NCBI GenBank assembly: GCA_046727155.1
Contig: JBKPCB010000014.1
Location: 22,695 to 86,694, forward strand
Origin: Candidatus Methylomirabilota bacterium
GTDB taxonomy: Bacteria > Methylomirabilota > Methylomirabilia > Rokubacteriales > CSP1-6
Direction: 5' to 3'
Length of the DNA: 64,000 bases
Shown: positions 2,355-44,097 of the stretch, piece by piece
Layout: the number at the start of each line of letters is the position of its first letter
Position numbering within the stretch: the first letter of the stretch is position 1
The notes under the pieces: generated by a model
Databases searched by the model: none
The model's input: only the letters and a program-made list of their open reading frames with translations
Told to the model about the DNA's origin: nothing
Position numbers and translations under genes: made by a program

Positions 2355-3509
2355 ATGACGATGGCAACGTCCTCGGTTTCCTCTGAGTCGGCCGCCGTCG
2401 CCCAACGCGCCGTGCTCGCCCCTCGCTCGCTCGGCGTGGAGTTTCTGCGGGAGCAGGCACCGATCATCGTGGCCGTCTTTGGCCTGGGCGTCGCGGCCAG
2501 CTATCTGCAGCACGGCTTCCTCGTAGGAGGCGAGCGCCCCTTCCCCTTGGCGGGCGTGCCCGTGCCGCTCTGGCACCTGCTGTGGCTCGGCTTTTGGACC
2601 GGCTACACCATGGCGCTCGTGGGCGAGGCAACCGGGATCTTCTCGCTCCCCTACTCCATGTCCATCCTCCGGTTTGACAACGTCCACGTGAGCCCGACCA
2701 ACCTGGTGATCACCGTCATCAATCCGATTGGGGCTCTCCTGGGCTTTCGCCGGACTGGGCAGTGGAATCTCGACTTCGCCCTCTGGCCGTGCCTGGGCAC
2801 TCTCATTGGGTCGCAGGTGGGGCCGTACCTGCGGGTCACCTACTTGAGCGATCCCGTGCCCTTCAAGGCTCTGGTGGGTCTCGCGCTGTTCTGGCTCGGC
2901 TGTCACCTGGTCTGGGAGATTACGCCGTGGTATCTGAGGGGGCGCGAGACGCAGCGTCTCTTCACCGAGCGCTTCCGGGCGCGGGCTCGCGAGATGGCGG
3001 CCGTCGGGCAATTCCCGTCGGGCATCCCGGAAGGATCCCGAATCGAGACCTTGGAGCGCGGGTGGCGACGGATCAGGATCGGCTTTCTGGGCCAGGAGTG
3101 GACCCTGAGCGTCCCGGTGCTCTTTCTCCTCGGCATCGGTGTCGGCGTCGTCGCTTCGACTCTGGGCGTCGGCGGAGGTTTCCTCTTGACACCGCTCCTG
3201 GTCACGCTGTTCAAGCTGCCGATGTATGTCATCGTGGCCGCCACGATCCCCTTCGTCATGCTCCAGTCCATCGTGGGCCTCGTCTCCTACATGCTGGTCC
3301 TCCCAGCTCTGACAGGGCATCTGGACCAGCCCGAGTGGGCATTCGGCTTCTTCACCGCCAGCACCGCCGTCTTCGGTGCCTGGCTGGCGGCCAAGACGCA
3401 GCGCTTCGTCCCCGAGGCCTACCTCAAGCTCGTGGCCGGCGTGGTCACGGGGCTCGGCGGGCTGCTGTACCTCATCAACTACTTCGTGCCGCTGCCGTTC
3501 AGGATATGA
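2355..3509 (+). CDS. TauE/SafE family sulfite exporter-type membrane protein (DUF81)
   Basis: Polytopic membrane protein with two internally repeated 4-TM halves typical of TauE/SafE. The longest ORF starts at 2238, but a sigma70-like promoter (TTGACA-N17-AATATA, 2302-2331) lies inside that extension. I therefore chose the in-frame ATG at 2355. Confidence 0.75.
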   Translation: MTMATSSVSSESAAVAQRAVLAPRSLGVEFLREQAPIIVAVFGLGVAASYLQHGFLVGGERPFPLAGVPVPLWHLLWLGFWTGYTMALVGEATGIFSLPYSMSILRFDNVHVSPTNLVITVINPIGALLGFRRTGQWNLDFALWPCLGTLIGSQVGPYLRVTYLSDPVPFKALVGLALFWLGCHLVWEITPWYLRGRETQRLFTERFRARAREMAAVGQFPSGIPEGSRIETLERGWRRIRIGFLGQEWTLSVPVLFLLGIGVGVVASTLGVGGGFLLTPLLVTLFKLPMYVIVAATIPFVMLQSIVGLVSYMLVLPALTGHLDQPEWAFGFFTASTAVFGAWLAAKTQRFVPEAYLKLVAGVVTGLGGLLYLINYFVPLPFRI

Positions 3510-3604
3510 GACGAGCGCTCATCAAGCTCGCGCCGCTGCTCCCATTCATCGTGCTCGGGGCGGCCGCCCTCGTGGCGGCCTACCACGTGCACCGTTACTG
3601 GTAG
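3506..3604 (+). CDS. hypothetical 32-aa single-TM peptide (MRRALIKLAPLLPFIVLGAAALVAAYHVHRYW)
   Basis: ATGA overlap with the TauE stop codon. Hydrophobic helix. Ends 9 nt before the next gene. No homology support. Confidence 0.25.
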   Translation: MRRALIKLAPLLPFIVLGAAALVAAYHVHRYW

Positions 3605-3612
3605 GGCCGGCT

Positions 3613-5010
3613 GTGCGAATCCGGACGGGCATCGGGCTGGCCATGCTGGCGCTGCTGCTGGGTGGCGTTTACTACGTCGTCGACATTCATGGACGCGCCG
3701 CGCGCGAGCAGGCGCGGGCAGCCGAGCGGCGCATCGTGAGCTTTGACCCCGCCCAGGTCGAGGAGCTGGCCATCGAGAAGGGAACGGAGCGGGTCGTCGT
3801 GCGCACCGATGGCGTCCGCTGGCGCATCATCGCGCCGGTAAAGGAGCTCGCGGACGACGCGGTCGTCGACGGGCTGCTTGCGTTCGTGGGTCGACTGGAG
3901 AAGGTCCGCTCGCTGGATGGTTTTGACGACCTCAAGGTCGTCGGGCTGGACCCGCCCCAGGCGCGGCTCAGACTGGCACTCCGGAACGGAGAGAGCCTGA
4001 CGCTTCAAATCGGAAGCCCCAACCCGGTCCGGACCGGTGTCTACGCGACGCTGGAGGGCGCCCCCCTCATCTTTCTGGCCCCGACGCAGCTTGCGATCGA
4101 GCTGGCGAAGACACCGTATGTGGACGAGCTGCGCGATCGAGCGATCCTGCCTCTGGATGTGGAACGCGTCGCCCGAGTCGAGATCGACCGCGCCGACACT
4201 CACATTGCCATCGAGCGCATCGCCGACCGGCGGTGGCGGGTGACGCGACCCATCCACGCGGACGGAGACGATGGCATCATCAGGGATCTGCTGTGGAAGA
4301 TCGGCGCAAGCCGCGCAAGCGCCGTGATCCGGACGCCCGGCCGGCCCTCTTCGTATGGACTGGATCGGCCTCACGCACGGCTGACTGTCGTCGACGACCG
4401 TGGAGTCTCACGCGCGCTGGCGGTCTCCCAATCTCCCTCCGACCCGCAGGTTGTCTACGCCAGAGTCGACGGGACCCCGGCAGTCCAGATCACCGACGGC
4501 CAGCTCCTCGCAGACCTCAGCATCGCGCCGGATGTGTTTCGGAATCGCCAGCTCCTGGTCTACGACCGGCGCGAGGTCGAGCGGATCACCATCCGGTATC
4601 CTGCCGACACGCTCGTACTGGAACGGGCGGGCGACCGCTGGCGGGTGACGAAGCCGGTGGAGGGCGAAGCGGTCAGGACGACGGTGGAGAACATTCTCGA
4701 GGTCCTGCCGAACCTCCGGTATGCTACCGCCCACCCGAACGGCAATTCGGACCTCGGGCGCTATGGCCTGGACCGACCGCGGCTCGCGGTGACTGTCGGA
4801 CTTGCGGGCGGCCGAGAGCTGCCGACCCTCGCCGTGGGACGGGAGGAGGGAGGACGGTATTTCGTGATGGTCGGGGCCGCCGCGCCAGTGTATACGATAG
4901 ACGCCCGCTTGCTGCGAGTGATCCCGGCGGATCCGGCTGACGCAAAGCGCTACCCGTTGCCAGAGCAAGTGAAACGGAACATGGAGAAGATCGAGCAAGG
5001 GAGGCGCTAG
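3613..5010 (+). CDS. DUF4340-domain protein with N-terminal membrane anchor
   Basis: GTG start gives VRIRTGIGLAMLALLLGGVYYVV (one TM) followed by repeated RWRV/…beta-rich modules typical of DUF4340. The annotated longer ORF (3376) overlaps the TauE gene out of frame. Confidence 0.65.
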   Translation: MRIRTGIGLAMLALLLGGVYYVVDIHGRAAREQARAAERRIVSFDPAQVEELAIEKGTERVVVRTDGVRWRIIAPVKELADDAVVDGLLAFVGRLEKVRSLDGFDDLKVVGLDPPQARLRLALRNGESLTLQIGSPNPVRTGVYATLEGAPLIFLAPTQLAIELAKTPYVDELRDRAILPLDVERVARVEIDRADTHIAIERIADRRWRVTRPIHADGDDGIIRDLLWKIGASRASAVIRTPGRPSSYGLDRPHARLTVVDDRGVSRALAVSQSPSDPQVVYARVDGTPAVQITDGQLLADLSIAPDVFRNRQLLVYDRREVERITIRYPADTLVLERAGDRWRVTKPVEGEAVRTTVENILEVLPNLRYATAHPNGNSDLGRYGLDRPRLAVTVGLAGGRELPTLAVGREEGGRYFVMVGAAAPVYTIDARLLRVIPADPADAKRYPLPEQVKRNMEKIEQGRR

Positions 5011-5018
5011 GAGACGCC

Positions 5019-5480
5019 ATGGGGGCACATCGTCGAAAACAGTACTTCGGGGTCGCGGCGACATTGCTGCTGCTGGTTCTTGCCGTTTGGCGCGGGGAGG
5101 CGCTCGCGAACCCGAAGCTCATCCTGACCACGTGGCGCATCGAGCCGAGCACGGTCAAGGAGAACCAGCCATGGACGGTCAAGCTCTGGGTGGGCAATAT
5201 CGGCAGCGAGCCGGCCAAGAAGGGATTCACCGTCCAGGTGCTCGGCTGCGACAAGGACTACATCAAGTGCGACAAGGTCTACGCATCTCAGGACCTGAAG
5301 GCGGCCCCGAGTGATCTGGCGCCGGGCAAGCTCCCCGGTCGCGAGATCGTCATGGAGATCAAGCAGGGCCTCGGCAAGGGCGAGCACTTCATCCTCTTCG
5401 TGGTCGACGCGAAGAAGGAGGTCGGTGACGCTCCGATTCAGAAGCAGGTTCGGGTACCAGTGGGATTTCAAAAGTTCTGA
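5019..5480 (+). CDS. secreted hypothetical protein (signal peptide; Lys-rich; lower GC than surroundings)
   Basis: N-terminal signal (AATLLLLVLAVWRGEALA). Beta-rich composition, possibly CARDB-like. No function recognised. Confidence 0.55.
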   Translation: MGAHRRKQYFGVAATLLLLVLAVWRGEALANPKLILTTWRIEPSTVKENQPWTVKLWVGNIGSEPAKKGFTVQVLGCDKDYIKCDKVYASQDLKAAPSDLAPGKLPGREIVMEIKQGLGKGEHFILFVVDAKKEVGDAPIQKQVRVPVGFQKF

Positions 5481-5552
5481 CCGAGAAAGGAGGGCGAACG
5501 GGTTCGCGCTCATGCTCGCAGACTCGAACTCGAACGGCACACGGAGGCAAAG

Positions 5553-6755
5553 ATGCTCTACGTGAAACGGTTCCGGATTCTGGCGACGACACTCGCGATC
5601 ATTCTCAGCCTGGGCGTAGCCAGCGGGGCCTGGGCCGAACTCGAGTACAAGCCGCTCCCGGCCCAGCAGGAGAAGGGCGATCCCGTCCACATCCGCGTCT
5701 ATCATCAACCGTACTACACCCAGTCGTGGAGCTCATCGGTGATGAAGGTCAAGCAGTTCTGGAAGAAGTACCTGCCGCCGGGCTCGACGGTAACCTACGA
5801 GATCGCGCTCCAGGGCGCCCTCGCCGTGAACGCCATCGTGGCCGACAAGGCCGAGTATGGCTACGGCGGCGACGCGCCCAGCGTCCTGGGGATGACCCAG
5901 CCGCGTGAGAAGGCGGACATCCGCGGCGTCTGGGTGAACGGATACTCGAACTGCTGCCATTGCAACGTGATGATCATCGCCGCTGACGCGCCCTACCAGA
6001 AGTCGCCCGAGGATTACGTGAAGTGGCTGAAGGGCAAGCGGGTCGGCGGCGCCAAGGCCTCGTGCAACGACCGCTGGTTCCGTCAAGTGTACAAGCGCTT
6101 CGGCGTCGAGCCCGAGTCCCACGTGCACCAGAGCTTCGAGGTCACGCGGACGCAGTTCCGGGTGAAGCGCATCGACGCGACTGGGATCTGGGAGCCGCAC
6201 GCCTCGGCAATCTGGCTCCAGGACAAGACCGGCCGCCCGGCCGCGACCGGCGGCGCATTCGGGATGGATGATCTCTCCTCGACCTTCGCCAGCAACAAGT
6301 TCATCAAGGCCAATCCGCGGGCTCACATCGCTATGGCCAAGGCGGAGATCGAGTCCCAGATGTGGCTGATCGATCCCAAGCACGAGAAGGAGCTCATCGA
6401 GGCCCTGGCCAAGGAGACCGAAGGCTACTCCAAGCTGGTGCTGTGGCATTCAATGTACGGCAAATACCCTGACGAAGTGGGCGGCCAGGCCATTCGTGAT
6501 TTCCACCCCGTCATGTACACCGACGACGTCAAGCGGTTGTTCAAGGACGTGAGCGACTTCCTCTGGTCCATCAAGGTCACCTCCCAGCTGTTGCCTGCCG
6601 ACGCCTATCTCGAAGAGCCGCTGGCTGTCGCGGCCAAGGAGCTGGGTGTCCGGCTGCCGCTGGAGGGCGGGTTCATCACGGCGCGACCCATCGAAAAATC
6701 GCCGTACTACGATCCGAAGGCGCTGGAGGGAGTGCCACCGGTTGTGAAGAAGTAG
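5553..6755 (+). CDS. ABC transporter periplasmic substrate-binding protein, NitT/TauT (SsuA/TauA/NMT1-like) family
   Basis: Signal peptide, 400 aa, NMT1/SsuA-like fold signature blocks. Followed by cognate permease and ATPase genes. RBS GGAGG upstream. Confidence 0.8.
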   Translation: MLYVKRFRILATTLAIILSLGVASGAWAELEYKPLPAQQEKGDPVHIRVYHQPYYTQSWSSSVMKVKQFWKKYLPPGSTVTYEIALQGALAVNAIVADKAEYGYGGDAPSVLGMTQPREKADIRGVWVNGYSNCCHCNVMIIAADAPYQKSPEDYVKWLKGKRVGGAKASCNDRWFRQVYKRFGVEPESHVHQSFEVTRTQFRVKRIDATGIWEPHASAIWLQDKTGRPAATGGAFGMDDLSSTFASNKFIKANPRAHIAMAKAEIESQMWLIDPKHEKELIEALAKETEGYSKLVLWHSMYGKYPDEVGGQAIRDFHPVMYTDDVKRLFKDVSDFLWSIKVTSQLLPADAYLEEPLAVAAKELGVRLPLEGGFITARPIEKSPYYDPKALEGVPPVVKK

Positions 6756-6777
6756 GGGGCGCGGGCGGCGCGCGCTC

Positions 6778-7743
6778 GTGACCGCGCGCCGCCCAGCCGC
6801 CAGACAAGGCCATATGGCGAAGATCCTGACGAAGACCGCCGCCGCGCCGGCGGCTGAGGCGCGGGTGGAGCCGGCGGTGGTCTACACCCGCCGCCGCATC
6901 CTCTGGCTGCGCACGAAGAAGGCCCTCACCGAGCGATTCTTCTGGCTCGGCTTGCTCGGCATCCTGGCCTTCTTCGTCGGATGGGATCTGGCCTATCGCT
7001 TCGAGCTGCCGCGCATGGAGAAGCTCGAGAGCCCGCTCTACACGTTTCGCGAGTTCACGCTCCCACCGCGGGGGGCGTTGACCTACAACCCGGCGCTGGA
7101 ATCCAAGTGGGGCTACGGTATCTGGGGCACCGCCTGGTACATCGACATCGGAATGAGCGTCTGGCGCATCATTCAGGCCTTCCTGTGGTCCCTGCTGGGC
7201 ATTCCCCTCGGCCTACTGATGGGCTGGAAGCGCTCCATCCGCGATTTCGTATTCGCGCCCTTCGAGCTCATGCGCCCAATCCCGCCCATCTCCTGGGTGC
7301 CGCTGGCCATCGTCATGTTTCCGACTCAAGAGGCGCCCATTGTCTTTCTCTGCGCCATCGCCTCCTTCTTCGCGGTGACCCTCAATACCCTGCTCGGCGT
7401 GGACTCAATCGATCCCGTGTACTTCCGCGCCGCCCGCTGCCTCGGGTCGAGCGAGTGGCAGATCTTCCGCCACGTGATCATCCCGGGCGCCATGCCCTTC
7501 ATCTTCACCGGCATGCTGATCGGACTCGGCGTGGCGTGGTTCTCCCTGGTGGGAGGCGAGATCATCGCCGGCACCTGGGGGCTCGGATACCGGACCATGG
7601 ATGCCTACATGAATGTCGCGACGCCCCAGCTCCTCATCGCGATGTTCACCATCGGGTTCATCGGCATGCTCATGGGGGTCGGGCTTCGCATCCTGCAGCG
7701 GCGCGTGCTCGCCTGGAAAGCCAAGACCGGAGAGACAATCTGA
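6778..7743 (+). CDS. ABC transporter permease, NitT/TauT family (binding-protein-dependent inner-membrane component)
   Basis: 6 TM segments and a conserved EAA-type loop. The start may instead be ATG 6814. Stop overlaps the next start (TGATG). Confidence 0.85.
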   Translation: MTARRPAARQGHMAKILTKTAAAPAAEARVEPAVVYTRRRILWLRTKKALTERFFWLGLLGILAFFVGWDLAYRFELPRMEKLESPLYTFREFTLPPRGALTYNPALESKWGYGIWGTAWYIDIGMSVWRIIQAFLWSLLGIPLGLLMGWKRSIRDFVFAPFELMRPIPPISWVPLAIVMFPTQEAPIVFLCAIASFFAVTLNTLLGVDSIDPVYFRAARCLGSSEWQIFRHVIIPGAMPFIFTGMLIGLGVAWFSLVGGEIIAGTWGLGYRTMDAYMNVATPQLLIAMFTIGFIGMLMGVGLRILQRRVLAWKAKTGETI

Positions 7744-8993
7744 TGCAGGCCCTCCTCGATTTCCTGAAGCGTGTCGAGATCTTCAAGGATCTCGGCCGGG
7801 AGACGCTGGAGAAGATCGCCACCATCTGCGAGGAGAAGCGCCTCCCACGGGGGACCGTCGTCTATCGCACCGGAGAGACCCCCGAGTCCTTCTATATCCT
7901 CAAGCAGGGGGCGGTGAGCCATCCGAGCCTGCTGGGAGGGCGCGGCTCCTCCGACGGGCTCGTCCGCGCGCCGGGCGATCTCTTCGGGCTTGCTGCGGTC
8001 GTGGAAGAAATGAAGCGACGCTTGTTCACCGTCGAGTGTCTCGAGGACACCACGGTATACGCCATCAACGGCGCCCGGCTGCGCGAGATCCTCAAACTGG
8101 ACCCCTCCACCGGCTACGCCGTCATGCAGCGCTTCGCCGGCCTGATGGCCAAGGCCGAGGGGTCCATCCCCGCGCGCACCGGCGCGCTCAGCATCCGAAA
8201 TGCCGGGAAGATCTACGACCCGGAAGGCGTGCACGTGATCGCGGTCGAGGACTGCTCCGTTGAGGTACCGCCCGGGGGGATTTGCGTCGTCGTGGGACCC
8301 TCGGGCTGCGGGAAAACCACCCTCCTCAACACCATCGCCGGCTTCGATAATCTGACCTCAGGAGAAATCTACCTCGACGGGGATCTCATCGCCGCGCCGG
8401 GAAGGGCGCTGAAGCCCGGGCCCGACCGGATCGTGGTCTTCCAGCAGGGCGCGCTGTTTCCGTGGAAGACCGTGCTCGACAACGTCACCTACGGGCCTGT
8501 CATCCAGGGCAAGATGTCACGGAAGGAAAGCGAGGACCACGCGCGGGGCCTGATGGAGAAGGTCGGGCTCGCGGGAATCGAGTCCCAGTATCCGGGAGAG
8601 ATCTCCTCGGGGATGCGGCGCCGGGTCGAGATCGTTCGGGCGCTGATCAACGACCCGAAAATCCTCCTGCTCGACGAGCCCTTCCGCGCCCTGGATGCGC
8701 TGACCAAATCGGTCATGCACGAGTACCTCCTCGAGCTCTACGATCTCTCCCACAAGACCATCTTCTTCATTACCCATGACCTCGAGGAGGCCATCTTCCT
8801 GGGCGACCTGGTCGTGATCATGACAACCCGTCCCGGCCGCGTGAAGAAGCTGATCTCCGTGGATCTCCCCCGCCCTCGCACTTACCGCATGCTGACCTCG
8901 AAGCGCTTCCTGGCCCTCAAACAGGAAACCATCGAGGGCGTGCACGAGGAAGCGCTCAAGGCCTTCGAGGCCGGGGAGCGGGAGCTGGCGTAG
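7743..8993 (+). CDS. ABC transporter ATP-binding protein (NitT/TauT family) with N-terminal cyclic-nucleotide-binding (Crp-like cNMP) domain
   Basis: Residues 1-140 form a classical cNMP-binding beta-roll (IFKDLGRETLEKIA…RTGETPESFYILKQG…). This is followed by Walker A GPSGCGKTT, the ABC signature (EISSGMRRRV), Walker B LLLDEPF and an H-loop. Confidence 0.85.
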   Translation: MQALLDFLKRVEIFKDLGRETLEKIATICEEKRLPRGTVVYRTGETPESFYILKQGAVSHPSLLGGRGSSDGLVRAPGDLFGLAAVVEEMKRRLFTVECLEDTTVYAINGARLREILKLDPSTGYAVMQRFAGLMAKAEGSIPARTGALSIRNAGKIYDPEGVHVIAVEDCSVEVPPGGICVVVGPSGCGKTTLLNTIAGFDNLTSGEIYLDGDLIAAPGRALKPGPDRIVVFQQGALFPWKTVLDNVTYGPVIQGKMSRKESEDHARGLMEKVGLAGIESQYPGEISSGMRRRVEIVRALINDPKILLLDEPFRALDALTKSVMHEYLLELYDLSHKTIFFITHDLEEAIFLGDLVVIMTTRPGRVKKLISVDLPRPRTYRMLTSKRFLALKQETIEGVHEEALKAFEAGERELA

Positions 8994-9003
8994 GGGTGCG
9001 CGA

Positions 9004-10074
9004 ATGAGCCTTGCGAGCGCCGCGAAATGGGCATTGGTCCTGTGGACGCTGGTGTGCGTCGGGCTCGGCTTCTTCCGGTTCGCCGACACCACGTTTCCGC
9101 TGAACCCGCCGCCGGGGGTCCATGGGGAGCTCCACATCGCTCTGCAGGCGATGCGCGCCTATCGATACTGGGGGGCGATCTGGATCGCACCCGCCGCGGC
9201 GCTGTTCCTCGTGTGGCGTCTCAGGCGCGAGGTCGACGAGGACTCGGCGAGCCGGCGACGGGCCGTGGAGCGGAGGCGCCAGCCGGTGGCGACGCGTGTG
9301 AGGAAGGCCGCTTTCAACGTACACACGCTCCGGGGGGCTCTTGGTGTCCTGGCGATCCTCATCGTCTGGCAGATCGCTCAGCCGCTGGGGATTCCCATCA
9401 TCAAGCGGATCCCGCCGCTGTCCGAGGTCGTGTCGCGTTTCTTCGATGATCGCGGCCTCTTCTGGCGCGACAAGTACTGGGCGGGCTGGGTCATCAGCCT
9501 CTTCCGGATCTTCTCCGGCTTCATCCTCGCGCTGCTCATCGGCGTCCCCCAAGGCCTCGCCTGGGGGATCAGCCGAACCATGAAGGCGGTGTCCTTCCCG
9601 GTGTTCGAGATCTTCCGGCCTATTCCCCCGCTCGCCTTCCTGCCGGCCGCCATCTACCTCATGCCGACGGCCGAGCTCTCGATCATCTTCGTGATCTTCC
9701 TGGGCGCCTACTTCACCATCGTCATCAACACCATCAACGGCGTGTACAACGTGGACAAGTCCATGCAGCGGGCCGCACTATCCCTCGGCGCGAGGCGCGG
9801 CGACATCTTCTGGAGAGTCATCTTCCCCGGCACGCTGCCGTCCATCATCACGGGCGCCACCGTGGGAATGGGGATCACGTGGATGGTGCTGGTCGCGGCC
9901 GAGATGATCGCCGGACGCTCGGGGATCGGCTTTCTCACCTGGGAGTCGTATACCGCCGGCGACATTCCGCAGGTGGTCGTCGGTATGGCCAGCATGGGCG
10001 TTGGAGGCGCCATTTGCAGCGCCGTGATATGGCGCCTGGGCGTCAACCTCACCCCATGGCGGAGGCTGTTCTGA
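9004..10074 (+). CDS. second ABC transporter permease, NitT/TauT family
   Basis: Paralog of the 6778 permease with conserved membrane topology and EAA loop region. Confidence 0.85.
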   Translation: MSLASAAKWALVLWTLVCVGLGFFRFADTTFPLNPPPGVHGELHIALQAMRAYRYWGAIWIAPAAALFLVWRLRREVDEDSASRRRAVERRRQPVATRVRKAAFNVHTLRGALGVLAILIVWQIAQPLGIPIIKRIPPLSEVVSRFFDDRGLFWRDKYWAGWVISLFRIFSGFILALLIGVPQGLAWGISRTMKAVSFPVFEIFRPIPPLAFLPAAIYLMPTAELSIIFVIFLGAYFTIVINTINGVYNVDKSMQRAALSLGARRGDIFWRVIFPGTLPSIITGATVGMGITWMVLVAAEMIAGRSGIGFLTWESYTAGDIPQVVVGMASMGVGGAICSAVIWRLGVNLTPWRRLF

Positions 10075-10093
10075 GCCTTAGGCGCGGAGGGGC

Positions 10094-10945
10094 GTGATGC
10101 CGAAGGGCGAAGGCCGCGTCGAGTGCCGTGACGTGACGAGGATGTTCGGGGAAGAATGGGCGCGCCAGCTCGTCGTGGATGGTGCCTCCTTCCTGGTCGA
10201 GGCCGGCAAGCTCAATGTGATGGTCGGGCCCTCCGGCTGCGGCAAGAGCACTCTGATCAACCTCATCGCCGGCTACGAGGAGCCGACTCGGGGCGAGATC
10301 CTCATCGACGGCCAGCGCGTGCAAGGCCCTGGGCGCGACCGTCTGGTCGTCTTCCAGGAGACGGCGCTGTTCCCCTGGATGACGTCGTTGGAGAACGTGC
10401 GGTTTGGCCCCCAGGTGCGCGGGATCAATCCGAAGGAGTCGCGGCAGGAGGCCCGCCGACTGCTGGAGAAAGTGGGACTGCGGGGCTTCGAGGACAAGTA
10501 CCCGTCGCAGCTGTCCGGGGGCATGCAGCGCCGCTGCGAGCTCGCGCGAGCGCTCATCAACCAGCCCAAGATCATGCTGATGGACGAACCCTTCCGCGGG
10601 CTGGACGCCATGACCCGCGAGCTGATGCAGGAGTACCTCCTTCGCCTCTTCGAGGAAACACAACTGACGATCCTGTTCGTGACGACCGAGCTGGAGGAGG
10701 CCATCTTCCTCGCGGACCGCCTCTTCATCATGAGCGCGAAGCCGACGAGCGTGAAGATGGTCCTCGACGTCGATTTGCCGCGCCCCCGCGACTTCCACGT
10801 CCTGACCAGCGAGCGCTACGCGGAGCTGAAACAGGTGGCGCTGGAAGCGCTCTACGAGGAGGCGGTCAAAGCCTTCGCCAAGGGCAGCAAGGCTGCCTAT
10901 GACCTCGTGGAGGCCTTCGGCAAGCGAGTCGGGACGGGCGGATGA
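10094..10945 (+). CDS. second ABC transporter ATP-binding protein, NitT/TauT family (no cNMP domain)
   Basis: Walker A GPSGCGKST, signature LSGGMQRR, Walker B LMDEPF, H-loop. Confidence 0.85.
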   Translation: MMPKGEGRVECRDVTRMFGEEWARQLVVDGASFLVEAGKLNVMVGPSGCGKSTLINLIAGYEEPTRGEILIDGQRVQGPGRDRLVVFQETALFPWMTSLENVRFGPQVRGINPKESRQEARRLLEKVGLRGFEDKYPSQLSGGMQRRCELARALINQPKIMLMDEPFRGLDAMTRELMQEYLLRLFEETQLTILFVTTELEEAIFLADRLFIMSAKPTSVKMVLDVDLPRPRDFHVLTSERYAELKQVALEALYEEAVKAFAKGSKAAYDLVEAFGKRVGTGG

Positions 10946-10949
10946 TCCC

Positions 10950-11144
10950 ATGGGCCAACTGAGGACGCTGACGATCGCCATGGCTGCGCTGGGAGCCCTC
11001 GTCGCCGTGGTGGCCGCCCTCGGCAAGCTGTCCGGTCGTCTCGGTGATAGCACCGTCAACCGTCTCTACTATCTCAGCTACGGGTGCAGCGGCCTCGGTA
11101 TCGGGCTCTTCATCCTGGACGGCCTCTTCGGGGTGCGGCCATGA
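10950..11144 (+). CDS. hypothetical small membrane protein (64 aa, two hydrophobic helices)
   Basis: ATG 5 nt after the ATPase stop. Sequence MGQLRTLTIAMAALGALVAVVAALGKL…GLGIGLFILDGLF. Confidence 0.3.
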   Translation: MGQLRTLTIAMAALGALVAVVAALGKLSGRLGDSTVNRLYYLSYGCSGLGIGLFILDGLFGVRP

Positions 11145-11195
11145 GCGCGAAAGACGCAACCGTCGCCATCGTCGAGGCGCGGGGCGGGAAAACTA

Positions 11196-11255
11196 TTGAC
11201 GCTCACTTGATGGAAGAGACATACTGAGACGTCCCAGGGCAAAGTTCACGCCCTG
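11196..11255 (+). promoter_or_regulatory. candidate promoter (TTGACG-N18-CATACT) plus CAGGGC-N9-GCCCTG inverted repeat in the leader of the Rieske oxygenase operon
   Basis: Read directly. The inverted repeat at 11235-11255 sits between the putative -10 and the RBS AGGAGG. Confidence 0.35.
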
Positions 11256-11287
11256 TCAATAGGCCTGAGAGAAGTAGGAGGTGCGCT

Positions 11288-12475
11288 ATGGCGCGTGGAA
11301 TGGCGGAGTGGGAACGCAGGCCGGCCTTGCCCCCGACCCATTACGTCCATCCGGCGATCTACACGGACCCTGTGATCTTGCGCGAGGAGCAGGAGAAGAT
11401 CTTCTCCAAGGTCTGGTACCTCGCCTGTCATGAGAGCGAGCTGCCGAGCGCCAACGATTACCGCGCCTACCAGCATCCCGCCGGGAAAAACCTGCTCATC
11501 GCGCGCGGCGAGGACGGCAGGATCCGGACCTTCTACAACGTCTGCCCTCACCGCGGCAACACGCTGGTCTACGGCCCCGCCGGGAACGCCAAGCACATCA
11601 CCTGCATCTTCCACGCGTGGGCCTTCAGCACGAAGGGTGACTGCGTCGAGATCACGCGGGAAAAGCAGGGCTATGGCGATCGCCTGAGCAAGAAGGATTA
11701 CGGGCTGCGCGAGGTGCGGACCGAGGTTGGATTCGGCGGTTTCGTCTACGTCAATCTGGACGACAGCGCGGGCCCGCTGGCGGAATTCATCGGTCACGCG
11801 CTCGACGGCATGCTGAAGTGTCTGGAGTCGGAGCCGCTCGAGGTGTTCCACTACCACAAGGCGGTGGTGAACACGAATTTCAAGTTCTGGCACGACACGA
11901 ACAGCGAGTTCTACCACGACTACATGCACTACCACAATCGCCAGACCAGCATGCTCCAGCCGAGCTACTGGGAGCGGGAGTACATCCCCTTCCCGAACGG
12001 CCACGCGCAGGTCGGCGATCAGGTCGTGAAGTACGAGGCCTACGAGGGCTTCAAGGGCCGCGAGCTCTCCTTCCCGGGGCTCGAGCGGAACGGCTGGAAG
12101 ATGGTGGACCTCTTCCCGGGCTTTACCTACAACCTTCGCGGCTCGGCGCTTCGAATCGACACGATCCTGCCGCTCAGTCCGGCAAAGACCGTCATCGAGT
12201 ACCGCGGCCTCGGCCTGAAGGGCGACACCTCCGATCAGCGGACCCAGCGCATCAACGACTACAACTCAATCTGGGGCCCTTTCGGGCGCAACCTGCACGA
12301 GGACCTGTTGGGGGTAACGGGCCAAGGTCGCTGCATCGGGGGTGGGCAAACCTGGATCCTCCATGCTCGGGAGGAAGCGAACAAGATCCACGACGAGATC
12401 GGGATGCGCCACTACTACGCCGAGTGGAGCCGCCGGATGGGGCGTCTGGCGAGCAGCCCGAATGGCGAACGATGA
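11288..12475 (+). CDS. Rieske non-haem iron ring-hydroxylating-type oxygenase, large (alpha) subunit
   Basis: Rieske motif CPHRG-X17-CIFHAW and a mononuclear-iron His/Asp region (DYMHYHN). 395 aa. Strong RBS AGGAGG. Operon with beta, reductase and ferredoxin genes. Confidence 0.85.
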   Translation: MARGMAEWERRPALPPTHYVHPAIYTDPVILREEQEKIFSKVWYLACHESELPSANDYRAYQHPAGKNLLIARGEDGRIRTFYNVCPHRGNTLVYGPAGNAKHITCIFHAWAFSTKGDCVEITREKQGYGDRLSKKDYGLREVRTEVGFGGFVYVNLDDSAGPLAEFIGHALDGMLKCLESEPLEVFHYHKAVVNTNFKFWHDTNSEFYHDYMHYHNRQTSMLQPSYWEREYIPFPNGHAQVGDQVVKYEAYEGFKGRELSFPGLERNGWKMVDLFPGFTYNLRGSALRIDTILPLSPAKTVIEYRGLGLKGDTSDQRTQRINDYNSIWGPFGRNLHEDLLGVTGQGRCIGGGQTWILHAREEANKIHDEIGMRHYYAEWSRRMGRLASSPNGER

Positions 12476-12957
12476 ACACCGCCAATACTGCTGTGAGCGG
12501 CGCGATCGAGCACCAGGTGCGAAACCTCATCTACACGGGTTGTCTGCTGCTCGATGCGAGCGACTTCGGGGGATGGCTGGGCCTGTGCGCGCCAGACTTT
12601 CGCTACTCGATCTCCACCTACAGCCCGGAGATCCGAAAGGATCAGACGTGGCTCGACCACGATTTCGAGGGGATGCAGCACCTGGTCAACATGCTCCCGA
12701 AGCACAACAGCGACCAGACTCCGCTGACCCGCCACGCCACGGTCTACACGATCGACCACGATCCAGCGGCCAATGAAGCGAAGGTGGTGACCTCCGTTGC
12801 CATCTATGCCACTACCCTCGACGGCGGTGAGACCAGCCTGTACGCCCTCGCCCGGTATCACGACGTGGTGGGCCTGGCGGGAACACCCCGATTGAAGCGG
12901 CGGGTCGTACGGCTCGAGACGCGCAGCCTCGGCATCGGGAAACACTGGCCGCTCTAG
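12472..12957 (+). CDS. oxygenase small (beta) subunit, NTF2/SnoaL-like fold
   Basis: 161 aa. ATGA overlap with the alpha stop. Typical beta-subunit size and sequence character. Confidence 0.75.
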   Translation: MNTANTAVSGAIEHQVRNLIYTGCLLLDASDFGGWLGLCAPDFRYSISTYSPEIRKDQTWLDHDFEGMQHLVNMLPKHNSDQTPLTRHATVYTIDHDPAANEAKVVTSVAIYATTLDGGETSLYALARYHDVVGLAGTPRLKRRVVRLETRSLGIGKHWPL

Positions 12958-12976
12958 AGATCTCAAGCGAACGCCC

Positions 12977-14020
12977 TTGAAGATCCTGCTCAGCGCCAAG
13001 AACCAGGCGTACTCCTTCGACTGCGACCCCGGCGAGAAGATCCTGCACGCCGGCTTGCGCTGCGGTATCGGGCTTCCCTACGAATGCGGCACCGGCACCT
13101 GCGGGACCTGCAAAGGAAAATTGACCCAGGGAGAGGTCCACAACGAATGGCCAGAGGCGCCCGGCCAGGCCGGGCTGCGGCGCGACGCGGGCGAGTTCCT
13201 CATGTGCCAGTGTGTGGCCCGGACCGACTGTTCGCTGCAGGTGGCCAATGTCGTAAAGCCCATGGCGCCGGACGTCTTTCTGCCCGCGGCCGTGGGCAGT
13301 GTCATCCGCCGAAGCACGATGCTCACCCACGACGTGGCGGCGCTGGAGGTGGAACTAGCCGACCCGTTCAGCTTCGAAGCCGGGCAGTTCGTGCTGATGT
13401 CCGTTCCGGGTGTCGTCGGCACGCGAGCCTACTCGATGACGAACTTCGAGCGTAAGGCGAAACAACTCGCGTTCGTCATCAAGAAGAAGCCGGGCGGCCG
13501 GGTGAGCGAATGGCTCTTCCGCGGTGGCATCGAGGACACGCGAGTGGATCTGTTCGGGCCGCTCGGAGTGGCGACCTTTCACCCAGGGATCGGCAAGAGC
13601 CTCCTCTGCATCGCGGGGGGCAGCGGCATCGCCGGCATGATGTCCATCCTGACCTGCGCGGCCGAGGCGCGGCATTTTGATCGCTACCGGGGCCACGTCT
13701 TCTTCGGCGTTCGCACCTCGAGGGACGTCTTCTTTCTCGACGAGCTGGCCGCGCTCCGGACCCGCTTCCCGGATGCCCTCGACGTGACGGTCGCCCTCTC
13801 CGACGAGGCTATCGACGCGGGACTCGAGGCCCGGTATCCGAGGCTTCACTTCGACGCGGGGCTGATCCACGCGGTGGCGGGAGCGCGGATGAAGGGCAGG
13901 TTCGACAACGTCCGGGCGTACGCGGCGGGACCGCCCCCGATGGTGGACGCGACGCTCAGGATGCTCCTGCTGGAGGGACGGCTGACCTCCGACAACATCC
14001 GTTACGACAAGTTCAGCTGA
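12977..14020 (+). CDS. oxygenase reductase component: plant-type [2Fe-2S] ferredoxin domain + FAD/NAD(P)-binding ferredoxin-NAD(P)H reductase
   Basis: CxxxxCxxC…C cluster (CGTGTCGTC) at the N-terminus. RxYS FAD motif (RAYS). GGSGIAG NAD-binding glycine-rich motif. Confidence 0.85.
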   Translation: MKILLSAKNQAYSFDCDPGEKILHAGLRCGIGLPYECGTGTCGTCKGKLTQGEVHNEWPEAPGQAGLRRDAGEFLMCQCVARTDCSLQVANVVKPMAPDVFLPAAVGSVIRRSTMLTHDVAALEVELADPFSFEAGQFVLMSVPGVVGTRAYSMTNFERKAKQLAFVIKKKPGGRVSEWLFRGGIEDTRVDLFGPLGVATFHPGIGKSLLCIAGGSGIAGMMSILTCAAEARHFDRYRGHVFFGVRTSRDVFFLDELAALRTRFPDALDVTVALSDEAIDAGLEARYPRLHFDAGLIHAVAGARMKGRFDNVRAYAAGPPPMVDATLRMLLLEGRLTSDNIRYDKFS

Positions 14021-14031
14021 CAGGGCGTGGC

Positions 14032-14760
14032 ATGGGGAAGAAGTTTCTCTGCCGCACCGACGAGTGCCCGCGCAACGGCATGAAGACCTTCGAGACCGAG
14101 GGCGGGCTGAAGATCCTCGTGGCCAACTCGGGCGACCGGTACTACGGCTACCAGGCCATGTGCCCGCACATGGACGTGGCCCTGGAGGAGGGCTTCTACG
14201 ACGGGGCCGTCATCACCTGCCACCAGCACCTGTGGCAATGGGAAGTCCGGTCCGGCACGCCAATGGGCCAGGCCGAAGCCCCGCTGCAGCAGTATGAGTT
14301 GCACGAGGAGGACGGCGCGCTCTACGTCGTGCCATCGGATCCGGTGAGACAGACGGAGCTCTTTGCCGGCCTGACGGACGAGACGCTGGCAGCCATCGGC
14401 CGCCTGGCCCGACGCGAGACGTTCGAGGAGGGCAGCGTGATCTACCGGCCCGGCGATCCGGCGGACGACCTGTGCGTGCTCGAGTCGGGACGCGTACAGT
14501 TCACCATTGGGCACGGCGAGCACGCGAGCCCCGCCGGCTTCAGCCTGCGGAGTGGTGAGGTGTTCGGCTGGAACGCGCTCCTTGAGGACCAGCCGCAGCG
14601 TATCGCGACGGCCGCCGCGCTGGAACGGTCCTCGGTGCTCCTGCTCGACGGCCGGGAGCTCTTCGGCGTCTTCGAGAAGGACCCGAGGGCCGGATACCTC
14701 GTGATGCGTAGGCTGGCCTCCCTGATCACCCGACACCTGACGCCGATGGGGGCCCGATGA
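14032..14760 (+). CDS. Rieske [2Fe-2S] ferredoxin fused to C-terminal cyclic-nucleotide-binding (Crp-like) domain
   Basis: N-terminal ~105 aa has CPH-X16-CHQH (Rieske ferredoxin). C-terminal ~125 aa is a classical cNMP beta-roll (LFAGLTDETLAAIGRLARRETFEEGSVIYRPGDPADDLCVLESGRVQF…). Confidence 0.8.
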   Translation: MGKKFLCRTDECPRNGMKTFETEGGLKILVANSGDRYYGYQAMCPHMDVALEEGFYDGAVITCHQHLWQWEVRSGTPMGQAEAPLQQYELHEEDGALYVVPSDPVRQTELFAGLTDETLAAIGRLARRETFEEGSVIYRPGDPADDLCVLESGRVQFTIGHGEHASPAGFSLRSGEVFGWNALLEDQPQRIATAAALERSSVLLLDGRELFGVFEKDPRAGYLVMRRLASLITRHLTPMGAR

Positions 14761-15566
14761 GCTCCGAGATTTTGTCCAGCCCCGAGAGGTCCGGGCGGGC
14801 GGGCGGACACGGCGCCGAGATGGCCCAGATCGAGCGGGTCAGCGCCGTGCCGCTCTACCGGCAGCTGCTCGAGATTCTCCGCGAGGAGATCGTCTCCGGG
14901 CGCCTGAAGGCCCACGAGCGGCTGGCGACCGAGCTCGAGCTGATGAAGCGGTTCGGCCTCAGCCGCACCACCGTGCGCCAAACGATCTCACGGCTGCGGA
15001 ACGAGGGCCTGATCTCGGTCCATCGTGGCAAGGGCACCTTCGTCGGCCGGGGCAAGATCGAGCCGGAGCTCTCGGCCCTCACGGGGTTCGTGGAGGACAT
15101 GCGGGCGCTCGGGCTGACGGCATCGGCCCGCGTGCTCGGCGTGGAGAACGTCAAGGCCTCGGAACAGGTCGCCGAGAACCTGGGGGTCCGCCGCGGAGAC
15201 CTGGTCACGAAGATCACGCGAATCCGCCTGGCTGAAGAGGTACCGGTCTCGTTCGAGTACTCCTTCCTGCCGCTCGACCTCGGCCAGCGGGTGGCCCAAG
15301 AAAATCTCGAGGTGTCACCGATCTTTTCGCTCTTCGAGGACAAGTACGGAATCGCGTTGAGCGAAGCCTTCTACCGGATCGAGGCCAGCCGCGCCAACCG
15401 GGTGATCGCCGATGCCCTGGGCATCGAGCGCGGAGCGCCTGTGCTCGCCATCGAGCGCCAAACGCACAGTGTCGCCGGGCAGCCGGTCGACTTCGAGCAG
15501 ATGTACTACCGGGGTGACCGAATCCGGTACACCATGCGCCTCAAGCGTCGTCCGCCGCCGCGATGA
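14757..15566 (+). CDS. GntR-family transcriptional regulator with UTRA effector domain (HutC/FarR subfamily)
   Basis: wHTH GntR signature (RLATELELMKRFGLSRTTVRQTISRLRNEGLI) plus a C-terminal UTRA-like domain. A start at 14820 (MAQIERV) is also possible. Confidence 0.8.
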   Translation: MSSEILSSPERSGRAGGHGAEMAQIERVSAVPLYRQLLEILREEIVSGRLKAHERLATELELMKRFGLSRTTVRQTISRLRNEGLISVHRGKGTFVGRGKIEPELSALTGFVEDMRALGLTASARVLGVENVKASEQVAENLGVRRGDLVTKITRIRLAEEVPVSFEYSFLPLDLGQRVAQENLEVSPIFSLFEDKYGIALSEAFYRIEASRANRVIADALGIERGAPVLAIERQTHSVAGQPVDFEQMYYRGDRIRYTMRLKRRPPPR

Positions 15567-15579
15567 TTCCTCCACTGCC

Positions 15580-16230
15580 ATGAGCGCCACGAAACGGGAC
15601 GCAGCCGGGACCCGCGCGCGGCCGGCCGCAGACCCCGAAAGCCTCGAGGGCTTCCTCGAGGCGCTGGCCGGCACCTCGCCGACACCCGCCGGCGGCGCGG
15701 CTGGGGCGCTCACCGGAGCGCTTGCGGCTGCCCTTCTGAGCATGGTCTGCCGCGTGACGGCGCGGCGCGACCGGTCGGCCTCCGACTTGCCGAGGCTCGC
15801 CGCGACGGCAGACGAGCTTCGGACGACGCTGAGCCGACTCGTCGCCGAGGACACGGACGCCTACCAAGGGGTGCTCGACGCGCGGCGAGGATCCACCGCG
15901 ACGCCAGCAGCCGTCCAGTCGGCGCTCGTGCGGGCCACTGAGGTCCCCCTCGAGCTGGCGAGGCTGAGCGGGTCGCTGCTGGGGCTGTGCGAAAGGGTGC
16001 TCCCACAGGCCCGTGCGAGTGTACTGAGCGACCTTGGCGTGGCCGCGGCGCTCGCCCGGGCGGCGCTCGAGGCCGCCGCAATCACGGTCCGGGCCAACCT
16101 CGTGGGCGTGATCGATGTGAGGTTCGTCGATGCGGCAGCGACCAAACTGGACCGCCTCCTCGCCGAGGGGCAGACGGCGCACCACCGGATCGGCGAGATG
16201 ATCATCAAGCGAGTTGGACGTCCCGACTAA
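15580..16230 (+). CDS. cyclodeaminase/cyclohydrolase family protein (formiminotransferase-cyclodeaminase C-domain / methenyl-THF cyclohydrolase FchA-like)
   Basis: ~216-aa all-alpha protein. Ala/Leu-rich pattern matches FTCD_C family members. The longer ORF 15412 overlaps GntR out of frame. Confidence 0.6.
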   Translation: MSATKRDAAGTRARPAADPESLEGFLEALAGTSPTPAGGAAGALTGALAAALLSMVCRVTARRDRSASDLPRLAATADELRTTLSRLVAEDTDAYQGVLDARRGSTATPAAVQSALVRATEVPLELARLSGSLLGLCERVLPQARASVLSDLGVAAALARAALEAAAITVRANLVGVIDVRFVDAAATKLDRLLAEGQTAHHRIGEMIIKRVGRPD

Positions 16231-16250
16231 CCCTCAAGGAGGAAGGACCA

Positions 16251-17137
16251 TGGCGGAGACAAAGCCCGCAGAGCAGCCGAAACCCCGCAAGAAGATCACG
16301 ATTCCCTCCCTGATGGACAAGAAGGCGCGGAAGGAGCCGATCACGATGCTGGCCGTCTACGACTACCCGACGTCGATCATCGCCGACCGCATCGGGATCG
16401 ACGTGCTCTGCACCAGCGACACGGGCGGCATGGTGCTCTTCGGCCACGAGAGCACCGAGACGGTGACCTACGAGGAAGTGCTGTTCATGACCCAGGGCAT
16501 GGCCCGCGGCTCGAAATTCGGCCTGCGGATGACGGACATGCCCTACATGAGCTACCACTACTCCGAGGAGCAGGCGATTCGGAACGCGGCCCGCTTCGTC
16601 AGCGAGGGCCGGGCCGAGGTCATGAAGTGCGAAGGCAATAAGCACCACGCCAAGTACATCGGCGCCATCGTCCGCGCCGGCATCCCGGTGATGGGCCACA
16701 TCGGCATCACGCCCATGCGGGTGGCCCAGCTCGGGGGCTTCAGCGCCCAAGGAAAAACAGCGGAGCGGGCAGCCGAGCTGGTAGAGGACGCCAAGGCGAT
16801 GGTCGACGCGGGGTGCTTCTCCATCCTGTGCGAGGTGACCACCTCGGAGGTGTGTGAATACCTGGCCGACACGCTGCCGGTGCCCGTGATCAGCCTGGGC
16901 GCGGGCAACAAGGCCGACGGCGTGCACATCATCACTTCCGACCTGTTCAAGTTCTACGACCGTCACACGCCACGCCACTCCAAGGTGTATATGGAGATCT
17001 TCCCGGTCATTCAGAAGGTCCTGCAGGACTACCACGACGACGTCGTGGGCCGTCGGTACCCGGGCCCCGAGCATACGGTGTTCATGAAGGAAGAGGAGCT
17101 CAAGCGGTTCCGCGACATCGTCGGTTGGCACAAGTAG
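16251..17137 (+). CDS. panB: 3-methyl-2-oxobutanoate hydroxymethyltransferase (ketopantoate hydroxymethyltransferase) family
   Basis: Conserved PanB blocks (TMLAVYDYPTS, DVLCTSDTGGMV, GHIGITPM, VISLGAG). RBS AAGGAGGAAGG 6 nt upstream of the ATG. Confidence 0.85.
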
Positions 17138-44096: not shown

Positions 44097-44097
44097 T

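Follow-up and report, generated by a model that had tools for sequence, protein, structure and literature searches.

What does a Rieske oxygenase act on when it is encoded beside a five-gene importer and amid sulfite-handling genes, and when its Rieske motif has a shorter spacer than that published for methanesulfonate monooxygenase (MSAMO)? The question is raised by nine tightly packed plus-strand genes (5553-14760; five for the importer, then four for the oxygenase system) of a Candidatus Methylomirabilota bacterium, contig JBKPCB010000014.1; we refer to the whole stretch of DNA analysed, 64,000 nucleotides from position 22,695 to 86,694 of the contig, as the window, and number from its first letter. 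An initial annotation proposed that the block encodes a desulfonating Rieske monooxygenase laid out like msm, with an importer of the NitT/TauT type and genes for sulfite handling around it, and held that the substrate was probably not methanesulfonate (MSA), a compound formed by the atmospheric oxidation of dimethylsulfide, given a spacer of 17 residues (X17) in the oxygenase alpha subunit where MsmA has 26 (X26). The proposed system is supported by homology, by the superclade into which alpha falls and by the flanking genes. As to the substrate we come to a different view, namely that the block is an MSA catabolic island of a short-spacer type, to which we assign a probability of about 0.68. 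We infer the substrate, the products, the regulation and the domain roles discussed below from comparison of sequences, and this comparison points to formaldehyde and sulfite as the products. Because alpha departs from the published signature (CXH-X26-CXXH) and the genes depart from the A-B-C-D order of MSAMO, we class it not as a canonical MsmA but as a variant with a short spacer, whose mode of action is most likely that of MSAMO.

The Rieske motif of the window alpha reads CPHRGNTLVYGPAGNAKHITCIFH, with the X17 spacing that had been claimed, and the same spacing is present in 119 of its 120 best homologues, the remaining one having X18. The nearest database alphas are 85-86% identical, the named one (P0002, 86%) belonging to a Candidatus Rokuibacteriota metagenome-assembled genome, and most of the named close matches carry 'methanesulfonate monooxygenase' as an automatic name. 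In a sequence library clustered at 50% identity, the closest full-length representative not in the group of the window alpha is an X26 protein (P0121, 55% identical), from which the window alpha differs by one 9-residue indel in the Rieske loop and otherwise only a 2-residue gap. P0121 was considered as a true MsmA and dropped; its loci hold GntR(FCD), SDR, aldehyde dehydrogenase and TctC genes, and neither TauE nor an ABC importer. The Methylobacterium nodulans type is a better canonical reference, with a 414-aa X26 alpha on pMNOD01 followed by genes for beta, Rieske ferredoxin, reductase, TauE, a molybdoenzyme and cytochrome c. The window alpha is 54% identical to this protein, 59% to the X26 alpha of Burkholderia sp. 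RPE67, which is one of the sequences in the published MsmA tree, and ~40% to the next families.

In our trees, all of them neighbour-joining (NJ), the X17 and X26 sequences together form a superclade with 100% bootstrap. The branching order inside it is only moderately supported: X17 sequences group with RPE67 at 61-64% and then with the M. nodulans group at 82%, a third X26 group lies outside, and monophyly of the X17 sequences receives 0% NJ bootstrap, the RPE67 protein and a degenerate one lacking the Cys and His residues (P0128) falling within or beside the X17 set. Because X17 sequences nest among X26 lineages in these trees, the short spacer appears to have come about by deletion within a radiation of X26 proteins. 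Sequences of either spacer type all keep the metal ligands His210, His214 and Asp369.

The initial annotation had suggested setting alpha against other Rieske clades, and when this is done it groups with MsmA and not with amine or carboxylate oxygenases. This bears on the idea of a formaldehyde-releasing demethylase of a methylated amine, sulfonium or ether (GbcA, CntA or Stc2-like), with the sulfite genes as mere neighbours. CntA and GbcA do appear among the distant matches, and C1-folate neighbours of the sort described below are typical of demethylases too, but the superclade is fully supported, the GbcA model gives the window alpha 89 bits against a cutoff of 670, CntA is found only as a distant PDB match (E 6e-26, residues 15-229), the GbcA/CntA type lacks the beta subunit that the window has, and the importer's substrate-binding protein (SBP) is TauA/SsuA-like in its predicted structure. 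We regard a demethylase as very unlikely. An aromatic ring-hydroxylating dioxygenase, acting for example on an aryl sulfonate or aryl carboxylate, seems to us hardly credible, even though the name 'aromatic ring-hydroxylating dioxygenase subunit alpha' is attached to many homologues and the best PDB sequence matches are nitroarene and naphthalene dioxygenases. Most PDB matches, the top-scoring ones without exception, lie mainly in the Rieske half of the protein (~residues 20-210), all equivalog models remain far below their cutoffs (HcaE 122/830, AntA 109/672 and BenA 94/781 bits, matching ~residues 20-215 only), and the neighbourhood showed no genes for ring cleavage or for a dihydrodiol dehydrogenase.

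The strongest guide to the substrate is what accompanies these oxygenases elsewhere. A scan of one genome per species gave at least 561 relatives, and the 80 best all have an X17-type alpha. This best set is spread over Vulcanimicrobiota/Eremiobacterota, Rubrobacteraceae, Myxococcales, Thioalkalivibrio and many Burkholderiales, with Methyloversatilis, Methylibium, Thiobacillus and Pelomicrobium among the latter. With the window proteins as tblastn queries, a conserved module of alpha, beta, reductase, ferredoxin, SBP, permease, ATPase, permease and ATPase is recovered, and since it recurs in most of 87 related loci, in several phyla, the layout of oxygenase plus five-gene importer is not a matter of chance. 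A canonical set of 120 metagenomic X26 loci was fetched by a DNA pattern for the M. nodulans-type segment GNPKR[IM]TCMFH, and its alphas have a median identity of 83% to the M. nodulans alpha. Context was counted on loci of at least 9 kb, 67 of the 87 short-spacer and 46 of the 120 canonical X26 loci, and for orientation we estimate that a given single-copy gene would be present in a random 20-kb stretch ~0.5% of the time.

Counted in this way, 36 of the 67 short-spacer loci have some C1-folate gene. FolD is present in 22/67 of them and 7/46 of the canonical loci, FTHFS (formate-tetrahydrofolate ligase) in 16/67 and 1/46, GcvT in 16/67 and 14/46, and PanB in 10/67 and 14/46. On the sulfite side, TauE accompanies 26/67 short-spacer and 20/46 canonical loci, SoxC or a molybdenum enzyme 18/67 and 12/46, and TauE or SoxC is found in 36/67 short-spacer loci; within 10 kb of a short-spacer alpha, SoxC homologues occur in 23 loci (median 67%, up to 76% identity), often ~2 kb upstream, which also argues against a demethylase with chance sulfite neighbours. 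An SBP homologous to that of the window is present in 55/67 short-spacer and 32/46 canonical loci. Aldehyde dehydrogenase genes, counted over all loci, are present in none of the 87 short-spacer and none of the 120 canonical ones. Among the fetched relatives, which carry labels beginning with L, the closest sister loci L087 and L090 (alpha ~80% identical to that of the window) have the window gene order, FchA-like and PanB genes included, plus FTHFS, FolD, GcvT, an FdsB-like subunit and an FdhA-like formate dehydrogenase. When the window is compared with the canonical X26 loci, median identities are 42% for the beta subunit, 47% for the reductase and 37% for the ferredoxin, 35% for the SBP, 42% for the permeases and 56-62% for the ATPases, and among the accessory proteins 63% for PanB and 51% for SoxC.

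These counts contradict the argument that an X17 spacer makes MSA an improbable substrate: C1-folate genes are frequent, aldehyde dehydrogenase is absent and the accessory set is that found around canonical X26 msmA. Since the C1-plus-sulfite neighbourhood is common to canonical X26 and short-spacer loci, and not to all X26 loci, MSA appears the likeliest substrate; and because a formaldehyde-plus-sulfite neighbourhood crosses spacer types, we take spacer length to be a poor guide to specificity.

Comparison with known systems is consistent with this. In the MSA degrader Filomicrobium, genes for LysR, TauE, GcvT, PanB (3-methyl-2-oxobutanoate hydroxymethyltransferase), SoxC and SoxD lie by msmHGFE and msmABCD, with an extra NitT/TauT ATPase after msmH (PMC4433239 Table 1), and this accessory list is almost exactly that around the window cluster. 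With the MsmABCD/MsmEFGH systems (Methylosulfonomonas methylovora M2, Filomicrobium Y and W, and the M. nodulans pMNOD01 type) the window shares the three components of MSAMO (alpha-beta, Rieske ferredoxin and a [2Fe-2S]/FAD/NAD reductase), the ferredoxin motif CXH-X16-CXXH, and a linked NitT/TauT ABC importer with two distinct permeases, to which a second ATPase is added as in Filomicrobium; TauE, SoxC/SoxD, PanB, and GcvT or FolD are common to the two kinds of locus. The window beta subunit is 40-45% identical to those of M. nodulans and RPE67, the reductase 48% to that of M. nodulans, and the components in general 40-48% to their M. nodulans counterparts. A sequence-only PDB search with the beta subunit returned weak, mixed matches only. 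The window differs from the canonical systems in the 9-residue deletion in alpha, in having the reductase before the ferredoxin (A-B-D-C, an order conserved across short-spacer loci, against A-B-ferredoxin-reductase in canonical X26 loci), in importer genes that are upstream and co-directional rather than divergent, in a GntR/UTRA rather than a LysR regulator, and in the cNMP-binding-like (CNB) domains on its ferredoxin and ATPase-1, which are nearly absent from canonical loci.

Short-spacer (n = 17) 'MsmA' proteins of unproven function have already been noted in Methylibium petroleiphilum PM1, Methyloversatilis universalis FAM5, Thiobacillus spp. and Ralstonia (PMC4433239). The window alpha is ~61% identical to those of FAM5 (L082), Methylibium sp. 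Root1272 (L060) and Thiobacillus sp. 63-78 (L048), and these loci have the same A-B-reductase-ferredoxin order, 242-aa ferredoxin-CNB fusion and five-gene importer. In the betaproteobacterial loci the importer follows the oxygenase and has its CNB domain on permease-1, whereas in the window the importer comes first and the domain is on ATPase-1; the window SBP is 35-41% identical to theirs.

The importer lies directly upstream of the oxygenase genes, as five genes of the MsmEFGH type. The initial annotation had named a nitrate- or bicarbonate-type SBP as an outcome that would speak against it, and this was not what we found: the AF2 model of the SBP (pLDDT 87) matches TauA (E. coli) and SsuA at Foldseek ranks 1-8, NrtA and CmpA following from rank 9, although such a ranking of predicted folds does not identify the ligand. 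The profile matches are modest, with NMT1_2 at 26.5 against a cutoff of 24.7 and SsuA_fam (E 3e-14) below its cutoff, and a sequence-only PDB search with the SBP gave weak, mixed matches only. A word-indexed protein search, which returned 36 proteins, showed close relatives of the SBP (63-92% identical) to be confined to its own lineage, followed by a drop to ~38%; one relative at this level sits in the short-spacer cluster L093. The SBPs of short-spacer loci show a median identity of 37% to the window SBP, and those of the canonical X26 msm loci (68 loci) 35%. The published MsmE tree includes a homologue from contig NZ_AFHG01000044 of M. universalis FAM5 (PMC5068391), and this is the contig of locus L082, which carries the FAM5 X17 cluster.

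A different neighbourhood is seen at some X26 loci outside the Alphaproteobacteria. The X26 'MsmA' homologues on RPE67 p3 (L085), Paraburkholderia graminis pPHS1_P (L092), L084 and the P0274 contig adjoin aldehyde dehydrogenases, and loci of this type also hold acetaldehyde dehydrogenase, PrpE, SDR or TctC, without C1-folate genes. In the betaproteobacterial and gammaproteobacterial X26 loci (RPE67, P. graminis) the A-B-reductase-ferredoxin order is that of the window and a TauE/TSUP gene lies downstream, but the place of the ABC importer is taken by an MFS transporter, the ferredoxin lacks a CNB domain, and aldehyde dehydrogenase, acetaldehyde dehydrogenase or PrpE is encoded nearby with no C1-folate genes. 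The P0121-type X26 loci likewise lack C1-folate genes beside their aldehyde dehydrogenases. This suggests that non-alphaproteobacterial X26 loci serve C2-or-longer sulfonates or other substrates, and X26 alone may not indicate MSA specificity.

These loci also lend something to the view of the initial annotation, that the window enzyme acts on another short-chain organosulfonate (ethanesulfonate, propanesulfonate, isethionate or similar) and releases a C2 or longer aldehyde with sulfite: the presence of aldehyde dehydrogenases beside X26 genes of the RPE67, P. graminis and P0121 types implies that specificity varies within the superclade. Also in favour of such a substrate are the replacement by X17 of the X26 spacer of all proven MSA degraders and the high divergence of the SBP, and the MSAMO of M. 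methylovora is said also to turn over C2-C3 sulfonates. We nevertheless consider such a substrate unlikely, given the absence of aldehyde dehydrogenase and the frequency of C1-folate genes at short-spacer loci, the FchA-like and PanB-like genes on the same strand as the oxygenase in the window (with FolD, FTHFS, GcvT and formate dehydrogenase added in sister loci), and an accessory set that is the same as around canonical msmA.

Several points weigh against MSA and are set out together here. Besides the missing X26 signature, every strain proven on MSA has X26, and X17 'MsmA' annotations are regarded as unproven (PMC4433239). The cluster of M. universalis FAM5 was silent on methanol and methylamine, MSA not being among the conditions (PMC5023235). 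For Ralstonia sp. PBA, X26 as well as X17 copies are reported (PMC4433239), and their co-occurrence could mean that the two have different specificities. Beyond its own lineage, the window SBP reaches only ~35% identity with any MsmE-like protein. The window holds only two C1 genes, and one of their products, the FchA-like protein, scores below its family cutoff. Finally, the context frequencies given above derive from tblastn with our own query set and not from curated annotation.

Taken as an MSA catabolic island, the block would operate as follows. A heteromeric NitT/TauT-type importer, in which an MsmE-like SBP joins two dissimilar permeases and two dissimilar ATPases, would take up MSA, and a three-component Rieske monooxygenase would hydroxylate its methyl carbon, with electrons presumably passing from NADH through the Fer2/FAD reductase and the Rieske ferredoxin to the alpha-beta hydroxylase. 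The unstable hydroxymethanesulfonate would break down to formaldehyde and sulfite; sulfite would be oxidised by SoxCD or exported by TauE, and formaldehyde would enter the tetrahydrofolate C1 pool by way of the PanB-like and FchA-like proteins, and in sister loci also FolD, FTHFS, GcvT and formate dehydrogenase. The GntR/UTRA regulator probably controls a promoter immediately upstream of alpha, and a further, post-translational control is probably exerted by the CNB-like domains of the ferredoxin and ATPase-1. The FMNH2-dependent SsuD/MsuD enzymes, an unrelated flavin-dependent system for sulfur assimilation, have a net chemistry on MSA that likewise gives sulfite and an aldehyde (PMC8234197); no SsuD/MsuD-type protein was named by Pfam and NCBIfam profile scans of the 20 genes between 433 and 21291.

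The initial annotation had spoken of sorA with cytochrome c; a sulfite-handling enzyme is indeed present, but it is of the SoxC type (TIGR04555 sulfite_DH_soxC, 609 bits against a cutoff of 420), with a SoxD-like frame directly downstream at the window edge, and the cytochrome c gene at the other flank pairs with a flavocytochrome c sulfide dehydrogenase (FCSD)-like flavoprotein. This second pair may be another sulfur-oxidation module unrelated to the msm genes. Both of the TauE/SafE paralogues that had been listed were found; the first is 79% identical to the L090 TauE over 2421-3506, and its true start is probably near 2420 rather than 2238. The FchA-like and PanB-like genes follow the regulator gene. 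The best NCBIfam match of the FTCD_C protein is FchA (127 bits, cutoff 275), with an FchA-like gene at the same position in L087 and L090, and the PanB-like protein scores 220 with TIGR00222 (cutoff 208). PanB-like copies 61-74% identical to it are present in 10 short-spacer and 14 canonical msm loci, across phyla. The PanB-like gene travels with msm clusters and looks like a dedicated paralogue for formaldehyde/tetrahydrofolate handling rather than for pantothenate synthesis. With sister-locus proteins as tblastn queries, no FolD, FTHFS, GcvT or FdsB homologue was found anywhere in the 64-kb window, and the FdhA query gave only a distant (26% identical) molybdopterin-oxidoreductase match.

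A single sigma-70-like promoter, TTGACG-18-CATACT, is located on the plus strand at 11196-11225, just upstream of alpha; it is the sole promoter-like match in 5000-18600, its hexamers are kept in L087 and L090, and a good Shine-Dalgarno sequence lies downstream. An imperfect palindrome, CTGAGACGTCCCAG, overlaps the -10 element (the site extending over 11196-11237) and may be the operator of the GntR/UTRA regulator, which is encoded at the same position in L087 (76% identical) and L090 (72%). By eye, inverted repeats with different arms are present at the same spot in L087 and L090. The 64-aa open reading frame (ORF) just upstream of the promoter has a counterpart in the same place in L087, a gene of 60 aa (64% identity over 33 aa), and in L093 this place is taken by a gene of 77 aa.

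The CNB domains of the ferredoxin and ATPase-1 were absent from the initial annotation. The 242-aa Rieske ferredoxin-CNB fusion constitutes a conserved family with 1294 matches, both domains being present in all of the 120 best, and a full-length match is found in 58 of the 73 loci with a ferredoxin match, including those of FAM5, Methylibium and Thiobacillus. Looking up the exact sequence of the window ferredoxin (P0372) gave no contig. The canonical, M. nodulans and RPE67 ferredoxins (105-125 aa) are without the domain, and CNB matches are present in 62 of 87 short-spacer loci vs 2 of 120 canonical X26 loci. The importer copy sits on a permease or an ATPase depending on lineage: among the fetched loci, fusion to ATPase-1 is confined to the window and to L087, L090 and L091, the three sister loci in which the gene was recovered, and in most betaproteobacterial loci the domain is on permease-1, giving a second CNB match ~+4.8 to +5.4 kb from the alpha start. 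In L093 there are a 465-aa gene combining cNMP_binding and BPD_transp_1 (10512-11909) and a stand-alone 184-aa CNB protein (1995-2549), and 13 loci have a third CNB match, mostly upstream of the alpha gene.

Between the two window copies the identity is 32%. In the AF2 model of the ferredoxin (pLDDT 86), the N-terminal domain resembles T4moC (35% identity, rmsd 1.6 Å) and the C-terminal domain has a CNB fold, CRP-like or 3mdp-like; no match spanning both domains was among the PDB matches listed. In a register against CRP set by eye, the cassette F-G-W-A-A-L-L-E-N-Q-P-x-R-I-A places an invariant Arg (R190) at the position of CRP Arg82, and the position of the ribose-binding Glu72 is occupied by an invariant Trp in the ferredoxin fusion and by Leu in the ATPase copy. 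Because the Glu72 equivalent is replaced although the Arg is retained, a classical cyclic nucleotide is doubtful as the ligand. As hypotheses for the role of these domains we consider joint allosteric gating of uptake and electron transfer, in which the copies could sense one common ligand, possibly an anion (substrate or sulfite) at the retained Arg, and CNB-CNB docking; on either hypothesis, uptake would be gated jointly with the delivery of electrons to the oxygenase. A literature search aimed at Rieske-CNB fusions gave no relevant paper, and in the paper library searched we came upon no account of CNB domains recurring on a Rieske ferredoxin and on ABC importer subunits.

The core of this finding is not new, since 'methanesulfonate monooxygenase' is the name that databases already give to such genes and the X17 group appears in the literature; what is new is the C1-plus-sulfite neighbourhood of the X17 clade as seen by comparison, its breadth across soil phyla, and the CNB fusions. 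The proven MSA degraders named in the cited papers are alphaproteobacterial isolates, and no relevant paper came out of a literature search on MSA genes of Rokubacteria or Eremiobacterota. Should the short-spacer clade prove to be a true MSA monooxygenase, many Betaproteobacteria and uncultured phyla of soil and groundwater would share the capacity. MSA specificity would then not require X26, nor would X26 suffice for it, in view of the X26 loci linked to aldehyde dehydrogenase, and surveys filtered on X26 would undercount MSA degraders. More tentatively, and with less confidence than the substrate itself, one could suppose that short-spacer msm is a major overlooked route for MSA on land with a new CNB control layer, formed by homologous domains on the Rieske ferredoxin and the cytoplasmic face of the importer, that gates uptake and electron delivery together; the system occurs in Rokubacteria-like, Eremiobacterota, Rubrobacteraceae and many betaproteobacterial genomes, and msmA markers requiring X26 would miss it. 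In the recurrent CNB fusions on Rieske ferredoxin and importer, a post-translational link between transport and oxygenation would be open to test.

The features of the locus are collected in the table. All nine genes of the block are confirmed by domain searches in the order originally described, importer and then oxygenase alpha, beta, reductase and ferredoxin, but the end of the block had been placed at 14020, short of the ferredoxin gene. The window has a G+C content of ~66%, real genes standing out at third-position G+C (GC3) of 0.8-0.9, and GC3 is 0.86-0.89 in seven scored ORFs of the block. A scan of 1-22000 against Rfam gave no matches.

Table. Features of the short-spacer msm-like locus and its flanks, in window coordinates
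Feature	Position	Strand	Evidence or remark
Periplasmic SBP, MsmE-like, NitT/TauT family	5553-6755	+	NMT1_2, SsuA_fam
ABC permease 1, MsmF-like	6778-7743	+	BPD_transp_1; best NCBIfam matches SaoP, TauC
ABC ATPase 1, MsmG-like, N-terminal cNMP-binding-like domain (~aa 1-140)	7743-8993	+	cNMP_binding E 3e-13; ABC_tran E 5e-30
ABC permease 2, MsmH-like	9004-10074	+	BPD_transp_1; TauC, NtrB matches
ABC ATPase 2	10094-10945	+	ABC_tran E 2e-34; TauB-type 226 bits
Small 64-aa hydrophobic ORF	10950-11144	+	Between ATPase-2 and alpha gene
Oxygenase alpha, short-spacer MsmA-like (CPH-X17-CIFH)	11288-12475	+	Rieske + Ring_hydroxyl_A
Oxygenase beta, MsmB-like	12472-12957	+	SnoaL_4, Ring_hydroxyl_B
NADH reductase, N-terminal plant-type [2Fe-2S] domain, MsmD-like	12977-14020	+	Fer2, FAD_binding_6, NAD_binding_1
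Rieske ferredoxin, MsmC-like (CPH-X16-CHQH), C-terminal cNMP-binding-like domain	14032-14760	+	Pfam Rieske + cNMP_binding
GntR/HutC-type (UTRA) regulator	14757-15566	+	GntR + UTRA domains
FchA-like methenyl-tetrahydrofolate cyclohydrolase	15580-16230	+	FTCD_C E 3e-40
PanB-like hydroxymethyltransferase (5,10-methylene-tetrahydrofolate dependent family)	16250-17137	+	Pantoate_transf E 1e-81
MFS transporter	17275-18480	+	Directly 3' of PanB-like gene; weak NCBIfam matches
SoxD-like cytochrome c, 5' part	1-432	-	Cut by window edge; GC3 0.84, CRECH haem motif
SoxC-type molybdenum sulfite dehydrogenase	433-1746	-	Oxidored_molyb + Mo-co_dimer; TIGR04555
TauE/SafE sulfite exporter family protein	2238-3509	+	Pfam TauE E 3e-35
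Second TauE/SafE family protein	18524-19309	-	Pfam TauE E 1e-36
Cytochrome c (two cytochrome c-type matches)	19381-20004	-	Adjoins second TauE gene
FCSD-like flavoprotein	20017-21291	-	Pairs with cytochrome c 19381-20004

Among the other genes near the block, the MFS transporter has its best model matches in L-lactate MFS and oxalate/formate antiporter families, all below cutoffs; its position holds FdsB-like and GcvT genes in sister loci, and by analogy of position it might move formate. Between the first TauE gene and the SBP gene there is a gene for a DUF4340 protein (3376-5010), with counterparts in the same place in L087 and L090 (58% identity for the latter), and after it comes a 153-aa ORF (5019-5480) present in the window only, with a hydrophobic signal-peptide-like N terminus and no family match.

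Farther along, the window contains a phosphonate module (40419-45288) with a PEP mutase-nucleotidyltransferase fusion, a TPP enzyme (phosphonopyruvate decarboxylase-like), a second nucleotidyltransferase and a CDP-alcohol phosphatidyltransferase; inositol-1-phosphate synthase is encoded after it (46358-47431), and a phosphonolipid head-group pathway is possible. MlaE, MlaD and MlaC genes lie at 37441-40328, and hopanoid genes at 32721-37672 and 47537-50287 encode a PNP_UDP_1 protein (HpnG-like), a radical SAM + DUF3463 protein (HpnH-like), a squalene-hopene cyclase and an MMPL (HpnN-like) transporter.

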